64,000 bases of DNA from an uncultured Chloroflexia bacterium. Lineage in GTDB: Bacteria > Chloroflexota > Limnocylindria > Limnocylindrales > CSP1-4. The first letter of the stretch is position 1. Every line of letters starts with the position of its first letter. A model generated the notes under the pieces. It was not told the origin of the DNA. It was given only the letters and a program-made list of their open reading frames with translations, and ran no database searches. Positions 29,657 to 35,488 of this stretch are shown here, piece by piece. Made by a program: the position numbers and the translations under genes. The stretch is from positions 180,178 through 244,177 of the forward strand of contig CAWEWE010000002.1 in assembly GCA_963812745.1 (NCBI GenBank), in the 5' to 3' direction.

Positions 29657-29842
29657 TCAGCCGGCCTGCGTTCGGGCGTTCTTCTTGCGCTTTGCTTCCT
29701 TGCGCTTGCGCTTCACGGAGGGCTTCTCGTAGTGCTCGCGACGGCGAGCCTCGGCGAGGATGCCGCTCTGCTGGATCTTCTTGTTGAAGCGGCGCAGGGC
29801 GCTCTCGAACGTCTCGTTCTCCCCCACTCGGACTTCAGCCAA
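29657..29842 (-). CDS. rpsU: 30S ribosomal protein S21
   Basis: TTG start after [12 protein letters not shown]; [23 protein letters not shown]. Confidence 0.95.
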
Positions 29843-29945
29843 TCGGTGTTCACCTCCTCCGACCTGGGTCTCGTGTTCTGCATCCGGTGCGCGGCCGACC
29901 GACCGGGATGCCCGCTCGACGGCCACGGGCGGCCAAAGCCGCCGG

Positions 29946-29974
29946 AGTCTACCCGAGGGCCCAAAGGCGGTCAA
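29946..29974 (-). promoter_or_regulatory. Sigma70-type promoter for rpsU
   Basis: TTGACC-N17-TAGACT on the minus strand. Confidence 0.6.
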
Positions 29975-30297
29975 ACGGCCGGAAGGCGCCCGCCGAGCAC
30001 CACCAGCCAGTACAGATCGAGCACCGCGACGACCGCCCAGAACCCGATGATCAGGGTCGGTCGGCGCAGGAAGCACTTGCTCCACGACACGCCGAGCGTG
30101 ATCGACTTGGCATACAGCACGATCGCGACGACGGCCACGACCAGTACGAACACCGCCGGCGAGACGAGCCAGGCGATCAGCCCGACCGTCCCCATCCGGC
30201 AGAACGTGAAGGCCAGTCGCTCGTACTTCTCGGGCGGGCTCAGGGGCGGCCGGACGTACGTGGCGGGCCCGACGGCCCCGGCGGGCGCGGCGCTCAC
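29971..30297 (-). CDS. Small membrane protein with two Cys
   Basis: 2-3 hydrophobic segments; GTGA overlap with the radical SAM stop. Confidence 0.7.
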
Positions 30298-31862
30298 GAC
30301 CGCACCGCCAACGGCCGCCGCGAGCGCACGTCATCGAGCGACACCAGCTCCCGCGCCGGCACCATGCCGGCTGACGTCGTCCGCCGCAGCCCGCCGAACA
30401 GCTGCCGCGCGCAGAACGGCACGCGGACCGGGTTCGCCTCGCCGTCGGTCGAGCCGACGTGGACGCAACACTGCTGGAGCCGCTCGATGTTGAGCGTCCA
30501 GGCGTCCATGAACGATTTGACCGAGAAGCGCTTGACCCGGAGCGCGATCTCCTCCACGGCGGCCTCGCGGTCGAACAACCACCGCCCGAGTGACTTCACG
30601 AAGCCCGTGACGCCGAGGTCGCACGCCTCGCACACCCGGAGGAGGTGGTCGACCAGCTCCGGGCGTGACACGAGCGTGGTCTCGGACATCATCCCGACGA
30701 GCGCCGTCCACATCGCGTCGTCGGGCGCGATCCGGTTCGAGACGAGCCCGAGGTACTCCTTCAGGCGGTCCTCGCCGAGCATCCGCGGGACCGACCGCCA
30801 CTCACCGCTGTCGCCCCTGATGAAGTAGGTGATCGACGAGCAGTCCGGGTGTGAGCACGGCAGCGCGATGAAGTCGTCCGGGCCGACCCGATCGGCCGTC
30901 TGCTTGCCCAGCCGGTCGAGCGTGCCGGTCGTCGTGACCCGGCGCATCGGGTCGATGGGGCTCATCCGACCCGAGCCGAAGACCGGCTGGTAGGCGACAC
31001 CCGCGATGTAGTCGGTCGCGAGGGCGTACTCGGCGATCGCGCCGACCTCGCGGTCGTTGACGCCCTCCGCCACGGCCACCGCGAGCGTGGTGAAGACCCG
31101 TTCCGCGGCCAGCCGGCGGAGCGCCTCGGCTTTGACGTCGCGCAGGTCCTCGCCGCGGTGGTAGAGGTGCGAATCGAGCTCGAATCCGTCGAACTGCAGA
31201 TAGACCTCGACGCGTCCGCGGAGCCGGCCGAGCGCGCTGACGAACCGGTCGTCCTTGGCGATCCGGATCCCGTTGGTGTTGAGGACCACGCGCGTCACGG
31301 CCCGCTCAGTGGCGGCCTCGATGATCTCGAGGACCTCCGGGTGGACGGTCGGCTCGCCGCCCGACAGCATCAGGACATCGATCCGGCCACCCTCGCGCTC
31401 GATCGCCGCGTCGAGCGAGCGCACGATGTGGGGCAGTCGCGCGAACCGGCCGATCCCTGGCGCGGCAGCAGCGAAGCAGGTCGGGCACTCGAGGTTGCAG
31501 TTCTCGGTGATGTCGAGCAGCAGCACGCACGAGTGCTGGGTCTGCAGGTCGCCCAGGCCGTCGGCGTAGCCCATCGGGATGGGCGCGGTGTTGCCGGTCG
31601 TATCGGGGATGATCTCGCGCGTCGGGGTCCGCCACTGCTGGAGATACTCCCAGCGGGCGTGGTCCTCCTCGTACAGGCTCGTCACCACGCCGTGCCCGCG
31701 ACGACAGGTACGGCGCAGGTACACGGCGCCGTCCATCGCCACCAGGTTGCCCTGCAGGATGTCGGTCTCGTAGTCGATGTCGCGGTCAGGATCCTCGCTG
31801 AAACAGCGGCCGCAGACCGTCAACACCATGCGGAGCGGCAGATACGGGCGCAGCGCGAGCAT
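30294..31862 (-). CDS. Radical SAM enzyme of the tetraether lipid synthase (Tes/MJ0619)-like family
   Basis: N-terminal Cxx[50 protein letters not shown]. Confidence 0.8.
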
Positions 31863-31874
31863 CGCGACCTCCGT

Positions 31875-32369
31875 TCATTGCGGGACGATGGGGACGCTGC
31901 TCGCGACGAGGCAGATCCCCAAGAGACCGAGGACGATGACGATCGGGAGACCGACGGCGATCAACACGCCCCAGCCCAGCCCGGCTGCGAGCGACGGCTT
32001 CGAATCGCGCAGGACGACCCAGCCGACGATGCCGGCCACGACGAGACCGAGCCCGATGACCGCGGCGATGTCGCCGACACCCATCGAACCGACCAGGGCG
32101 CCGACACCGTAGATCGCGGCGGTATAGCCGACGGCGACTGCGAGCACGACGCCGACGTTGGTCCGCCGCTCGGTCGGGATCGACTTCGCTGGGTTCCCCG
32201 CCGCTGACCACGCCGCGGTGATCTCGGCGTCGGTGTAGCCGGCTGCACGGGCAGCATCCCGGAGCGCCTCGTCCGTGAACCGGTCGCGATTGGTGCCGAC
32301 GTACGCCGCGAGCACCCCGATCCTGTCCTCCTCGACCGCGGGAACGGTCGGACCTCGTTCGTCGACCAT
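31875..32369 (-). CDS. Small 3-TM membrane protein with C-terminal GIC
   Basis: Short helical N-domain (AGYTDAEITAAW), 3 TM, LGLLGIC near the C-terminus. Confidence 0.7.
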   Translation of the reverse strand: MVDERGPTVPAVEEDRIGVLAAYVGTNRDRFTDEALRDAARAAGYTDAEITAAWSAAGNPAKSIPTERRTNVGVVLAVAVGYTAAIYGVGALVGSMGVGDIAAVIGLGLVVAGIVGWVVLRDSKPSLAAGLGWGVLIAVGLPIVIVLGLLGICLVASSVPIVPQ

Positions 32370-32373
32370 CGTG

Positions 32374-33189
32374 CTACGTCCCTCCGAGTGGGAGTGGGAT
32401 CGGCGCCGCCGGGACGCGATGCGCCCCGCGTCGCCATTGGCGGACGAAGTGCACGATCAGGAGCCCGACGAGCGGGATCAGCACCCATTGCGGGCCGGTC
32501 AGCCCGAGGGCCTGGGGCTCGTTGGCGCGCACGAACTCGACCAGGAACCGGAAGATGCCGGCGGCCAGGAGATACAAGCGCAGCCCGTCACCCGGCACCG
32601 GGACCCGGTCGCGGTAGCGGATGATCACCATCGCGGCGATCACGTTGAACCCGATCTCGTACAGCATCGAGGGGTGCATCGGCCCGCCACAGCCGGGGCA
32701 GCGCGCGAACGCCGCCGCGGCCTCGGGAGAGACGGCGATCCCCCAGGGCAGGTCGGTCGAGGTGCCGAGCGGCAGCTCGGACAGGAAGCAGCCGACGCGC
32801 CCGATCGCGGTGGCCACCGGGATGGCGAGCAGGTAAGCGTCGCCCGTGGAGTGCGGGTAGCCCGTCGCTCGTTTGGCGAGCACGATCCCGAGGTAGCCAC
32901 CAGCCAACGCCCCGATCAGGCTCTTGCCGCTCTGTTCGATGGCGACGGTCAGTGGCACACCGTCAAGCGCGCGGTAGTACTCGACGTGCTCCCAGGCGGT
33001 GATGACCCGGGCGCCGATGAGGGCGCCGACCACGGCCGCGATGGAGACCCCGACGATCCGGCCATCGAGCCAGCCCCGGCGACGGAGCTCGCGGTAGTAG
33101 ATCGCGAACCCGACGACCACGGCCAGGACCGAGAACGCGTCGTGGGTGAGGATGCGCCATGGACCGAGTTCCACCAGGATCGGGTGCAT
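32374..33189 (-). CDS. Prolipoprotein diacylglyceryl transferase (Lgt)-like protein, divergent
   Basis: MHP start, GRVGCFL, T.LPWGI, HPSMLYE, RFLVEFVR, Q. Confidence 0.85.
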   Translation of the reverse strand: MHPILVELGPWRILTHDAFSVLAVVVGFAIYYRELRRRGWLDGRIVGVSIAAVVGALIGARVITAWEHVEYYRALDGVPLTVAIEQSGKSLIGALAGGYLGIVLAKRATGYPHSTGDAYLLAIPVATAIGRVGCFLSELPLGTSTDLPWGIAVSPEAAAAFARCPGCGGPMHPSMLYEIGFNVIAAMVIIRYRDRVPVPGDGLRLYLLAAGIFRFLVEFVRANEPQALGLTGPQWVLIPLVGLLIVHFVRQWRRGAHRVPAAPIPLPLGGT

Positions 33190-33316
33190 CGAACCGATCG
33201 TAGTCCTTCGCCGTCCGGCGGTTGCGGCCCGGCGGCACGACGCCGGACTGCTACGAATGGGCGATCTGCGCGTCGTAGGATGCGACGACCCGCCACGCTG
33301 TCCGAGGCCCACGCCC

Positions 33317-34948
33317 TTGTCCCGAACCCTCCTCGATGTGCTCGACGCCGCCGTCACACGCTACGGCGAGCGACCCGCGCTCGGCGTGCGTCACGACGAT
33401 GGCTCGACGACCACCTGGTCGTATCGCGAGCTCGACTGGCGAGCGCGGATCGCGGCGTGGCGCCTACGCGCGCTCGACCTGGAGCCGGGCGACCGGATCC
33501 TGACCTGGAGCCCCTCGACGCCGGAGCTACCGGCCGCCTATTTCGGCGCGATGCACGCGCGACTGGTGCTGGTGCCGCTCGACCTGCGGATGTCCGCAGA
33601 CGCGATCGACACGATCGTCCGCGCGTCGGGCGCGCGCCACCTGATCCTCGGGACCGGGCGCGACGCACCCGATCCTGCCGAAGCCGGTCTTGCCGACTTC
33701 CCGACCACGACGGTCGACGCCCTGACGGCGCCGCCGACCGACGATGACGAGGCGTTCCCGCCCGACTGGGAGGCACGCCAGGCGGCCTGGAAGCGGCCCG
33801 AGGCCGAGGAGCTCTTCGAGCTCGTGTTCACGAGCGGGACGACCGGCACGCCCAAGGGCGTGATGCTGGCGCACGACAACGTCGTGGCATCCATCGAGTC
33901 GTTCCACCGGATCGTGCCGGCGATGGACCACCGGATCGTGTCGCTGCTTCCCCTGTCGCATCTGCTCGAACAGGCCGTCACGCTGTATTACGCCCTCGAT
34001 GTCGGCGCGGACGTGCTCTACGTCCGCAGCCGCAACCCGCGGGTGATCTTCGATGCGCTCCGGGACCACCGCGTCACGAGCATGGTCGTGGTGCCGCAGG
34101 TGCTCGACCTGTTCTGGAGCGCCATCGAGCGTGAGATCGCGAAGCGGGGGCGGACGGCGACGGTCGACCGACTTCGACGGATCGCGCGCCGGCTGCCGTT
34201 CGCGGTCCGGCGGATCATGTTCCGGAGCATTCATCAACAGCTCGGCGGCCACTTCCGGCTGTTCCTCTCGTCCGGCGCATTCCTGCCGCCCGCGCTGCAG
34301 CAGGCCTGGGAGGACATCGGCGTCACCGTCCTGCAGGGGTACGGCACGACCGAGACCGGCACCGGCGCGTGCGGCACGCTCGACGACCACGAGCCCGGCA
34401 CCGTCGGACGGGTGCCGGAAGGGATCCAGATGCGGATCGCGCCAGACGGCGAGATCCAGTTCCGCGGCCGATCGGTCTTCAAGGGCTACTGGCACGCCCC
34501 CGAGCTCACCGCCCAGGCGTTCACCGACGACGGCTGGTATCGGACAGGCGACCTCGGCCGCTACGACGACGCCGGCCGGCTGATCCTGAGTGGCCGGATC
34601 AAGGACATGATCGTCCTGCCGAACGGCTTCAACGTGTATCCGGAAGACATCGAGAACGCGCTGCGGATCGCCGAGCTTCGCGACCCCGTAGTGATCGAGA
34701 CCGCTCCCGGCCGCATCGAGGCGGTCGTGCTCGCGCTCGACGGCGAGGACGCGGCCGCGACGAAGGTCCGTGTCGACGCGGCGGTCAAGGCCGCGAACGC
34801 GACGCTCGGCCCGAACCAGCGGATCGCCGGCTGGCGGCGCTGGCCGGACGAGGACTTCCCCAGGACCCACACGCTCAAGATCAAGCGCGATCCCATCCGC
34901 CGCTGGGCCGCGACGAATGCGCCGGTGTCGGTCAGCGACGGGGCCTGA
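33317..34948 (+). CDS. Long-chain fatty acyl-CoA/AMP ligase
   Basis: FTSGTTGTPKG, LPLSH, QGYGTTE, YRTGDLG, GRIKD, VYPEDIE, PRTHTLK. TTG start after GAGG. Confidence 0.9.
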   Translation: MSRTLLDVLDAAVTRYGERPALGVRHDDGSTTTWSYRELDWRARIAAWRLRALDLEPGDRILTWSPSTPELPAAYFGAMHARLVLVPLDLRMSADAIDTIVRASGARHLILGTGRDAPDPAEAGLADFPTTTVDALTAPPTDDDEAFPPDWEARQAAWKRPEAEELFELVFTSGTTGTPKGVMLAHDNVVASIESFHRIVPAMDHRIVSLLPLSHLLEQAVTLYYALDVGADVLYVRSRNPRVIFDALRDHRVTSMVVVPQVLDLFWSAIEREIAKRGRTATVDRLRRIARRLPFAVRRIMFRSIHQQLGGHFRLFLSSGAFLPPALQQAWEDIGVTVLQGYGTTETGTGACGTLDDHEPGTVGRVPEGIQMRIAPDGEIQFRGRSVFKGYWHAPELTAQAFTDDGWYRTGDLGRYDDAGRLILSGRIKDMIVLPNGFNVYPEDIENALRIAELRDPVVIETAPGRIEAVVLALDGEDAAATKVRVDAAVKAANATLGPNQRIAGWRRWPDEDFPRTHTLKIKRDPIRRWAATNAPVSVSDGA

Positions 34949-34951
34949 GCC

Positions 34952-35488
34952 TCAGGACGGCACCGGCACGCCGGTCCCGAGCATCTCGAGCGCCGTCTGG
35001 ATGTCCGGCTGCAACGGGTCCTCGACGGCGTTCGGTACCCACGAATACATGACCACGGTCTGCCCGACCAGTCGGATGATGTGCCGCGCCCCGAACGCCG
35101 ACTGGACCTTGGCCGGACCGGTCGCCAGGTAGGCCGCCTGGGCGGTGGCCGCCTCGGCCGCGGCCGTCGGGTCGGGGAACTCGTAGACGACGATGAATCC
35201 CTCCTGCGGCGCCTGCGGCAGGATCACCTGATAGAGAGCGCGCGGCGTGACCGTGAAGCGAGCGTCCTCGGGGGGCCGGAAGGGCGCGGCCGAGTCCTGC
35301 AGGATGAGGTTGCGGCCACCGAGGACCCGGACCAGCTCGGCGCGGGTCTGGGCGACGACCGGACCGGCGGTCCTCGTCGGTCCCGCGGTCGCGGCAGGCG
35401 GCCCGGGCGTGATCACCGCGGTGCCGCTCGGGGCACAGCCGGCCAGCGCAAGCACGATCGGGGCGACGAGGGTCAGCCGGGCGGCCAT
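34952..35488 (-). CDS. Lipoprotein of unknown function
   Basis: Lipobox LAGC after a hydrophobic stretch. Confidence 0.7.
   Translation of the reverse strand: MAARLTLVAPIVLALAGCAPSGTAVITPGPPAATAGPTRTAGPVVAQTRAELVRVLGGRNLILQDSAAPFRPPEDARFTVTPRALYQVILPQAPQEGFIVVYEFPDPTAAAEAATAQAAYLATGPAKVQSAFGARHIIRLVGQTVVMYSWVPNAVEDPLQPDIQTALEMLGTGVPVPS

Follow-up and report, generated by a model that had tools for sequence, protein, structure and literature searches.

The locus described here raises the question of what a bacterial homologue of the archaeal lipid synthase Tes does when its gene stands in an operon with a relative of the lipoprotein diacylglyceryl transferase Lgt. Bacterial homologues of Tes, which belongs to the radical S-adenosylmethionine (SAM) enzymes, have been proposed as synthases of branched glycerol dialkyl glycerol tetraethers (brGDGT), their role has been open since 2022, and most organisms known to make membrane-spanning lipids lack them, according to the available parts of PMC8941075 and PMC13159169. 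The operon lies in a 64,000-nucleotide stretch of DNA (the window) from a soil Chloroflexota bacterium and encodes an Lgt-family protein, a small membrane protein with one Cys, a Tes-like radical SAM enzyme and a second small membrane protein with two Cys (Table 1). As judged from sequence comparisons, the pairing of the Lgt-like and radical SAM genes is strongly conserved in five or more phyla, where the genes are rearranged, and the operon probably makes an undescribed lipid-modified protein or peptide. With a probability of about 0.4, it is an instance of a multi-phylum module that would combine dedicated lipidation of a Cys by an Lgt paralogue with Tes-like radical modification of lipid tails.

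The operon and its conserved gene pair

The operon is real, and the layout first read from the DNA, four genes spaced by 4, 12 and -4 nt, is borne out for all four open reading frames (ORFs). The Lgt-like gene and the gene for the 164-residue protein are separated by a 4-nt gap (32370-32373), the latter and the radical SAM gene by a 12-nt gap (31863-31874), and the radical SAM gene overlaps the gene for the 108-residue protein by 4 nt (30294-30297). The likeliest start of the Lgt-like gene is ATG 33189, which gives 271 residues as in the orthologues, rather than GTG 33357, because the Pfam match and the orthologues begin there. For the divergently oriented ligase-like gene the likeliest start is TTG 33317, which has GAGG ahead of it and at which homology to relatives begins; the divergent spacer is therefore about 127 bp long. 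The -10-like hexamer TACGAT in this spacer ends 7 nt before ATG 33189, a position compatible with a leaderless transcript, which is plausible for the operon, and a scan of the spacer for the sigma-70 consensus called no promoter. The G+C content of the window is about 70%, and base composition at the locus has no break or island signal. The names given to near-identical proteins assign the window to Candidatus Limnocylindria/Limnocylindrales within Chloroflexota.

Table 1. Positions of the operon genes, the divergent spacer and the adjoining ligase-like gene in the window.
Feature	Position	Strand	Basis
Lgt-family paralogue, 271 aa (stop codon 32374-32376)	32374..33189	-	Pfam LGT
164-aa candidate acceptor, membrane protein with one Cys	31875..32369	-	family alignment A4 and AlphaFold2 model
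522-aa radical SAM enzyme, Tes/TrsS superfamily, Lgt-linked clade	30294..31862	-	family scores, alignment A1, tree
108-aa membrane protein with two Cys	29971..30297	-	family alignment A2 and AlphaFold2 model
Divergent spacer between the Lgt-like and ligase-like genes, with TACGAT inside	33190..33316	no strand	sequence
AMP-binding acyl-CoA-ligase-like gene, neighbour	33317..34948	+	AMP-binding, 232.7 bits

A scan of the genomes of 185,579 species returned 567 relatives of the radical SAM enzyme, of which the best 80 were kept as loci; the loci are themselves interrelated, and likeness to the window's enzyme was the ground on which they were chosen. An Lgt-like gene stands beside the radical SAM gene in 28 of the 29 loci of the window's clade (at least 41% identity), the exception having 608 bp of upstream DNA, so that the linkage proposed as a check on the original prediction proved to be conserved across phyla. 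Represented among the 29 clade loci are Chloroflexota, Acidimicrobiia and other Actinomycetota, Vulcanimicrobiota, Fimbriimonas and Abditibacterium (Armatimonadota/Abditibacteriota) and a metagenome-assembled genome (MAG) of Rhodothermales (Rhodothermota). In one of them, L072, the Lgt-like gene is present only as a fragment of 54 residues (L072:6720-6881, an Oscillochloridaceae MAG) beside an intact radical SAM gene and 108-residue protein gene, and this fragment may reflect a frameshift, a pseudogene or an assembly error. The pair is also found in 10 of the 51 other loci, these 10 being from Ktedonobacteria, Dehalococcoidia, Planctomycetota, Lentimicrobium, an archaeal MAG and, with the methyltransferase in addition to the pair, three loci of actinomycetes. 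Lgt-like genes adjoin the radical SAM gene in 10 of the first 18 loci fetched; in Bacteroidota, where a TrsS-like radical SAM enzyme occurs in 19 of 201 genomes, they abut it in 9 of the 12 loci fetched, which had flanks of 1.5 kb only.

Among 301 Chloroflexota genomes, a homologue of the radical SAM enzyme (E ≤ 1e-20) was found in 37, a tally that includes the unpublished genome G227, and one with at least 47% identity in 7, the window's genome included. A profile of the Lgt-like family (A5) scored at least 358 bits in exactly these 7 genomes. The next five Lgt-like proteins scored 199-212 bits, all in genomes with a homologue of the radical SAM enzyme, and the housekeeping Lgt of the window's genome scored 127 bits; the tally of this profile search (234 of 301) includes the unpublished genomes G145, G038 and G227. 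Neither of the two same-genus genomes has the clade enzyme, and 14 of the 15 same-family genomes lack it as well. No report of a pairing between an Lgt paralogue and a radical SAM enzyme was found in the literature searched, which did not extend to Haft & Tolstoy 2025 or to the supplements of the Tes and Mss papers.

The four proteins

The Lgt-like protein matches Pfam LGT at 109.1 bits (gathering score 24.9) over profile positions 1-238 of 240 and thus has the same full-length domain as Lgt (PF01790; structures 5azb and 5azc), with the motifs GR..., HPxxxYE and FRxxxEFxR common to both. It differs from the Lgt equivalog TIGR00544, which it matches at 58.1 bits, under the cut-off of 118.9, in having Cys for Asn146 and a shortened NQE segment. 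The genome, which is 92% complete, has three LGT-family genes scoring 214.8 (the canonical copy), 109.9 (the operon copy) and 72.5 bits, and encodes one LspA. A separate canonical lgt was therefore found where one had been looked for, and the description of the operon gene as a paralogue stands. The motifs GRWGNYFNQE, HPLFLYE and TRLVLETLR of the canonical protein correspond to GRVGCFLSE, HPSMLYE and FRFLVEFVR in the operon protein.

When the operon protein is aligned to Escherichia coli Lgt (5azb), the equivalents of R143, R239, E243 and R246 are kept and the position of Asn146 is occupied by Cys (GRVGCF); the roles of these five residues we take to be those given in the E. coli Lgt structure paper. 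The invariant columns among 23 Lgt-like sequences are G130, R131, C134, H172, P173, Y177, R214, E218 and R221. At the Asn146 position, Cys is present in 34 of 39 Lgt-like proteins linked to the radical SAM enzyme, these counts covering the correctly framed sequences and leaving out L108, L113 and L127, and Asn is found there in the canonical Lgt of the window's genome and in five Lgt-like proteins of Ktedonobacteria/Dehalococcoidia type. Many Lgt-like proteins have a GC-C[YF]G segment, and many the three-Cys motif GCxxxGCC; that of the operon has only a single extra Cys. The ktedonobacterial loci L040, L042, L081 and L087 keep Asn at position 146. The third LGT-family gene of the genome (G000:C4:66924-67652; L003:1408-2271, minus strand; 72.5 bits) carries Lys in place of Arg143, Met in place of Asn146 and Ser in place of Glu243, and is probably a degenerate or repurposed paralogue.

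The candidate acceptor of 164 residues begins with a cytoplasmic domain of three helices, to which three membrane helices are joined; its single Cys, C153, lies in the sequence LLGIC and is followed by a tail of 11 residues. Neither it nor the 108-residue protein has a Pfam or NCBIfam match, searches of the ESM Atlas with both returned only unnamed clusters of hypothetical proteins, and a Foldseek comparison of the 164-residue model with the Protein Data Bank gave nothing at E ≤ 0.001. In the family alignment (A4), all 13 sequences have C153, and at least 90% of them have G151. The AlphaFold2 model, with a mean predicted local distance difference test (pLDDT) score of 74.1, has helices at 16-27, 33-42, 47-57, 72-93, 98-123 and 125-157, and places C153 four residues ahead of the end of the last one, the third membrane helix. 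The idea of a dedicated acceptor agrees with this invariant, lipobox-like Cys at the outer end of the last membrane helix.

Small proteins with an invariant G-x-C in the last membrane helix, and a short tail or a secreted domain after it, are encoded at nearly every locus, and homologous or analogous G-x-C proteins adjoin the Lgt-like gene in loci other than the window's. The acceptor family of other Limnocylindria occurs in tandem copies, up to four in L038, in short forms with Cys plus 6-13 residues and in long forms that have, beyond the Cys, a Pro-rich linker and then a two-Cys domain of about 140 residues ending in ...W-x-C-[DE]; the long forms look like lipoprotein precursors. This long-form domain (L038:5015-7992, L037:7123-7992 and L054:5995-6900) belongs to no known family, and its end reads ISG(T/S)(I/L/V)xWxC(D/E). 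The N-terminal domain of the candidate acceptors in other phyla is a zinc ribbon or is absent, and their last helix has [VILF]-G-x-C at its end, with a hydrophobic tail of a few residues beyond. Of the 27 motif ORFs of clade loci, 22 have one or three membrane helices, which, with a cytoplasmic N-terminus, places the Cys in the outer leaflet by prediction. Lgt works at the outer leaflet.

A strict form of the G-x-C motif occurs in 17 of 39 Lgt-linked loci and in none of 41 loci without Lgt, and for a relaxed form the counts are 24 of 36 in the clade and 6 of 14 among distant Lgt-linked loci, compared with 5 of 49 where Lgt is absent, with the reservations that both forms were defined after the sequences had been seen, that the loci are akin and that a few of the distant matches to the relaxed form are the ICMT or Lgt gene itself. 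A complex prediction for the Lgt-like protein (A5) with residues 66-164 of the 164-residue protein (A4) gave no answer (score 0.00) and speaks neither for nor against binding. Known Lgt substrates have an N-terminal signal peptide with the lipobox L-[ASTVI]-[GAS]-C, whereas the candidate acceptors have their Cys within [VILF]-G-x-C in a C-terminal membrane helix. In the window, a 178-residue protein (34952-35488, minus strand) has a classical signal peptide and the lipobox LALAGC of a housekeeping-type Lgt substrate, as against LLGIC in the 164-residue protein. There is also an analogy, and no more than that, with eukaryotic CaaX processing (Cys prenylation, tail cleavage and ICMT methylation), in that both have a near-C-terminal Cys as lipidation site, here a candidate one, and an ICMT-family methyltransferase gene lies between the radical SAM and Lgt-like genes in the Bacteroidota and archaeal versions. 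Unlike in CaaX processing, the tail is hydrophobic and of 6-16 residues, the transferase is of Lgt type, no protease was seen, and the window operon has no ICMT gene.

The 108-residue protein has invariant C33, G69 and C75 in its family alignment (A2, 19 sequences), and its AlphaFold2 model (pLDDT 80.6) consists of a helical hairpin and a third helix (helices 21-44, 48-67 and 80-101). The loop with C75 carries 3-7 Lys/Arg in 18 of 19 sequences, and both Cys therefore probably face the cytoplasm, the side of the radical SAM enzyme, which the protein may dock at the membrane. Its gene lies downstream of the radical SAM gene in 26 of the 29 clade loci (24 by tblastn and two by eye), and two of the three misses are on contigs that end just past the radical SAM gene. 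The family is small, with 218 representative clusters in 1.84 billion proteins. An assignment to DUF4395 (PF14340) was not supported, as none of the 19 members had a Pfam hit and a comparison by hhalign with the proteins of that family in L116 and L085 gave a probability of 4.8%, over a 16-column stretch with AFxFC[KR] only; the likeness is limited to this short motif and to gene position.

The radical SAM enzyme matches Pfam Radical_SAM at 59.4 bits. TrsS, a radical SAM (seleno)protein reportedly named in Haft & Tolstoy 2025 (mSystems), is its best curated family (NF045646), with 220.5 bits against a cut-off of 490 and a full-length alignment over residues 38-488; Tes (NF045702) follows with 178.6 bits against a cut-off of 450. 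SPASM-family models reach merely 20-42 bits, over the core, and PADLOC found only a generic likeness of the radical SAM core to viperins (40.9 bits), the other proteins having no defence-system match. The window's enzyme has no in-frame TGA (selenocysteine) codon, and the TrsS cut-off was reached by none of the 201 Bacteroidota genomes and by no locus scanned, so that no true TrsS is among the loci compared; the more distant Lgt-linked relatives score 325-382 bits. Its closest solved structure is GDGT-MAS/Tes (7tol; phmmer E 1.8e-33 over residues 39-339, with a second stretch over 336-485).

With Tes/GDGT-MAS (MJ0619 family; 7tol, 7tom) the enzyme shares a rubredoxin-type CX2C...C..H site, a CX3CX2C core and, probably, a C-terminal Cys-rich cluster domain. 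The core motif (C122, C126, C129) and the rubredoxin-type site (C17, C20, C53, H57) are invariant in alignment A1, the latter with a 12-residue insert after CX2C and, in the window's subclade, C-X3-H spacing; in GDGT-MAS the site is C9X2C12X20C33X2H36 (Lloyd et al. 2022, PMC9433317, in the part available). Probable equivalents of the C-terminal cluster Cys are present in PC...HPDC, QQCCVH and PFCA; in Tes the radical SAM cluster and the Cys of the C-terminal cluster carry a C-S intermediate, as far as the available text of PMC9433317 goes. The [Fe4S4]N Cys (C73, C77 and C80 of Tes) are gone, the GCPxDCGLC of relatives having given way to PMGYADGLG; an 11-residue stretch takes its place in the window's enzyme and in all five aligned clade members, and the His that goes with these ligands (H110) is kept. 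At the labile-Met position of Tes (Met439), mapped through a 20-residue offset between chain and paper numbering, all three true Tes have Met, the window's clade has Lys and the remaining bacterial relatives have Thr, Ile or Gln; a Tes insert of about 14 residues before the H..C motif is missing.

Three bona fide Tes from archaeal genomes score 526-713 bits and form one clade (100/100) in an IQ-TREE phylogeny of 54 rows, in which Tes is represented by these three only and the other rows were picked for likeness to the window's enzyme. Apart from them stand a mostly methyltransferase-linked clade of 22 rows (93/84) and an Lgt-linked clade of 29 rows (100/96), the latter containing the window's subclade of 21 rows (100/100). 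Linkage to Lgt changes four times on this tree, against a mean of 18.0 for shuffled labels, and none of 500 shuffles was as low. The "Tes-like" label of the original prediction thus holds for the superfamily and for the nearest solved relative, but not as orthology: by its position outside the Tes clade, its scores below cut-off and the loss of the [Fe4S4]N Cys and, as mapped, of the labile Met, the enzyme is assigned to the Tes/TrsS superfamily as a member of a separate clade. It further differs from archaeal Tes in being bacterial and linked to an Lgt paralogue, a linkage not found for Tes in the literature searched. Mss of Thermotoga and Thermoanaerobacter is a radical SAM enzyme that couples the tails of ester-bound fatty acids and is only remotely related to Tes; it is likened to the window's enzyme by description alone, and the available text of PMC13159169, from which this description is taken, notes no Lgt linkage.

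Proposed mechanism and alternatives

In the proposed module, the small protein (here that of 164 residues) would insert with its N-terminus in the cytoplasm and with one or three helices, placing G-x-C at the outer-leaflet end of the last helix. The Lgt paralogue, with the phosphate-binding Arg pair and Glu kept and Cys for Asn146, would transfer a diacylglyceryl-type lipid, presumably from a donor of phosphatidylglycerol type, to the G-x-C Cys. The radical SAM enzyme would be docked at the cytoplasmic side of the membrane, perhaps by the 108-residue protein, which could tether or assist an enzyme whose clade has lost its surface electron-transfer cluster, and would direct Tes-like radical chemistry at the terminal carbons of acyl chains, either in the donor lipid before transfer or in the anchor after it. 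The outcome would be a tail-linked anchor (macrocyclic, dimeric or membrane-spanning) or one that is otherwise omega-functionalised; the genes, families, conserved residues, linkage and Cys motif from which the scheme starts are observed, and as chemistry the coupling of tails and the membrane-spanning anchor are purely inferred. For Tes and Mss, binding of lipids whose head groups are of phosphoglycerol type is reported (available part of PMC13274423); this is the donor class of Lgt, and it is counted in favour of the module. Nothing that the original prediction had named as refuting it was found, and as an interpretation it is partly supported, in the Lgt paralogue, the linkage and the acceptor Cys, and not in Tes orthology or in the role given to the ligase.

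Several points weigh against this module. The enzyme would be cytoplasmic and the active site of Lgt lies at the outer leaflet, on opposite faces of the membrane. Asn146, which is missing from the Lgt-like protein, is reported to be essential in E. coli Lgt. The acceptor Cys lies 5-8 residues inside a hydrophobic helix and at the C-terminal rather than the N-terminal end of the protein, Gly at -2 is not a canonical lipobox, and the motif counts share the bias of post hoc definition. Because the [Fe4S4]N Cys and the labile Met are lost and the window's subclade sits on a long stem (1.66), the chemistry may differ from that of Tes. The ArsM/DVU_1556-like, ArsP-like and ICMT/MddA-like partners in sister clades hint at heteroatom chemistry over C-C coupling. 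It is doubtful that the operon represents protein lipidation of a new kind, in which small membrane proteins or short peptides are held through a Cys by a lipid with acyl tails that a Tes-family enzyme has radical-coupled or omega-functionalised, and a Cys-variant Lgt subfamily, with a mechanism other than that of housekeeping Lgt, makes the anchor; its form would be macrocyclic, dimeric or membrane-spanning, or that of a thioether at the tail end.

The same genes could serve a pathway for free lipids, in which the radical SAM enzyme couples or modifies phospholipid acyl tails in the manner of Tes and Mss, the Lgt-like protein works on lipids only, moving diacylglyceryl to another lipid or a small thiol or removing the glycerophosphate head group, and the small Cys proteins are scaffolds or regulators. 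This agrees with a lipid synthase being the closest solved relative of the enzyme, with the binding of phosphatidylglycerol by Lgt, with the high variability of the small proteins in sequence and N-terminal domain, and with the proposal, in the available text of PMC8941075, that bacterial Tes homologues make membrane-spanning lipids. It is nevertheless unlikely, given that one Cys at a lipobox-like position is all that the small proteins strictly conserve, that their long forms resemble lipoprotein precursors, and that Tes homologues were not found in known diabolic-acid producers, according to the available part of PMC13159169. A predicted topology with Cys and tail outside the cell and the radical SAM enzyme in the cytoplasm, and an enzyme architecture that is that of Tes and not of a peptide maturase with SPASM or a recognition element (RRE), make it quite unlikely that the pathway is peptide-directed, like those of ribosomally synthesised and post-translationally modified peptides. 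There, the enzyme would modify the small proteins themselves, for example by a thioether or C-C cross-link near the Cys, after recognising their cytoplasmic N-terminal domain as a leader, and a short lipopeptide would be released after lipidation by the Lgt-like protein. Tandem hypervariable small genes with a common conserved C-terminal motif would be expected of such a pathway, the variable N-terminal domains (zinc ribbon or three-helix bundle) could be recognition elements, and cleavage by LspA before the Cys, if it occurs, would leave a lipopeptide tail of 7-17 residues.

Heteroatom chemistry would link a chalcogen or metalloid (S, Se or As), in place of another carbon, to a lipid tail at its omega-carbon, the partner here being the sulfur of a Cys in one of the small proteins or a bound metalloid handled by the Cys-variant Lgt-like protein. 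The window operon, however, has no methyltransferase, permease or arsenic/selenium gene, its Lgt-like protein lacks the additional Cys of the three-Cys motif and its radical SAM gene has no selenocysteine codon, so that this explanation is very unlikely here, even with TrsS, a (seleno)protein, as best NCBIfam match, with ArsM/DVU_1556-like methyltransferases directly downstream in sister clades, an ArsP-family permease in ktedonobacterial loci and an ICMT/MddA-like methyltransferase in the Bacteroidota and archaeal loci, with GCxxxGCC in many Lgt-like proteins, and with the passage of Tes through a C-S bond (PMC9433317, in the part available). Finally, the genes might form no functional unit at all, being unrelated membrane and radical SAM genes that share a variable slot. 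Relatives do carry other cargo in this slot (in G124 an ECF sigma factor pair, in G079 an MFS transporter), and the distribution is patchy (0/2 same-genus and 1/15 same-family genomes with the clade enzyme), but the genes remain adjacent in five or more phyla despite changes in their order, the 301 genomes show exact co-occurrence and the coding ends overlap or nearly abut, and this explanation is close to refuted by conservation.

A large multi-phylum clade of bacterial Tes homologues now has a distinct Lgt subfamily and small membrane proteins with Cys as its partners, and in place of a vague "Tes-like" annotation there is something concrete to examine, namely an operon of four genes, one Cys in the candidate acceptor and one in the active site. 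Should the operon yield a lipid anchor with modified tails, this would add a new type of post-translational modification, would put the Lgt family to a new use, and would give a large clade of bacterial Tes/TrsS homologues its first assigned role. It would also caution against taking every metagenomic bacterial Tes homologue as a marker of tetraether lipids.

The variable slot, neighbouring genes and sister clades

The acyl-CoA-ligase-like gene stands head-to-head with the operon, as had been described, and is no member of the conserved module. It is kept in three genomes without the operon (G124, G079 and G285), tblastn matches to it occur in 6 of the 29 clade loci, all of Limnocylindria type, and in none of the 16 clade loci outside Limnocylindria (L065-L080). 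Because of its retention without the operon and its absence from these 16 loci, it is regarded as a resident neighbour of a variable slot, outside the module, and the proposal that it supplies acyl groups is left without comparative support. In the same-genus genome G124 (L153, G124:C17:17800-20800) the four genes are replaced by about 1.97 kb with an ECF sigma factor and a second ORF of 297 residues, and the ligase, the 178-residue lipoprotein, HIT, rpsU and YqeY are retained around the slot. An MFS transporter occupies it in G079 (L155, G079:C25:36400-39200), and in G261 the slot is empty (159 bp) and the ligase is missing too. In the window, rpsU, encoding ribosomal protein S21 (29657-29974, minus strand), lies between the gene for the 108-residue protein and yqeY, and the sole promoter-like site on the minus strand, TTGACC-17-TAGACT (29974-29946), is just upstream of rpsU, at the stop codon of the 108-residue protein gene.

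Other gene neighbourhoods surround the more distant relatives of the radical SAM enzyme. In an archaeal MAG (L116:6995-11168) and in L085:7001-10570, L187 and L188, the radical SAM gene is followed, in this order, by genes for an ICMT-family methyltransferase that is also MddA-like, a DUF4395 protein, an Lgt-like protein and one or two small proteins whose C-terminus consists of G-x-C and 6-7 further residues. The Lgt-family gene on the archaeal-labelled contig (138.1 bits) is archaeal by label alone, with contamination or gene transfer possible, and is of note because a 2025 abstract (PMC12462473) states that no archaeal Lgt homologues are known. In 42 of the 80 loci (within L082-L131, e.g. 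L044:7707-10266), a class I methyltransferase resembling DVU_1556/ArsM (128.9 bits, cut-off 155), and not an Lgt-like gene, lies directly downstream of the radical SAM gene. These loci occur in Streptomyces, Pseudonocardiaceae, Acidobacteriota, Ktedonobacteria and others, and 13 of the 42 have a pyridine nucleotide-disulfide oxidoreductase nearby. The pairing recalls ArsS/ArsM, and it could point to attachment of a methylated heteroatom at the end of a lipid tail. In the ktedonobacterial loci L040, L042, L081 and L087, an ArsP-family permease (123.5 bits) comes right after the radical SAM gene, and a zinc-ribbon membrane protein is encoded that ends in (I/V)(S/G)C plus 9-12 residues.

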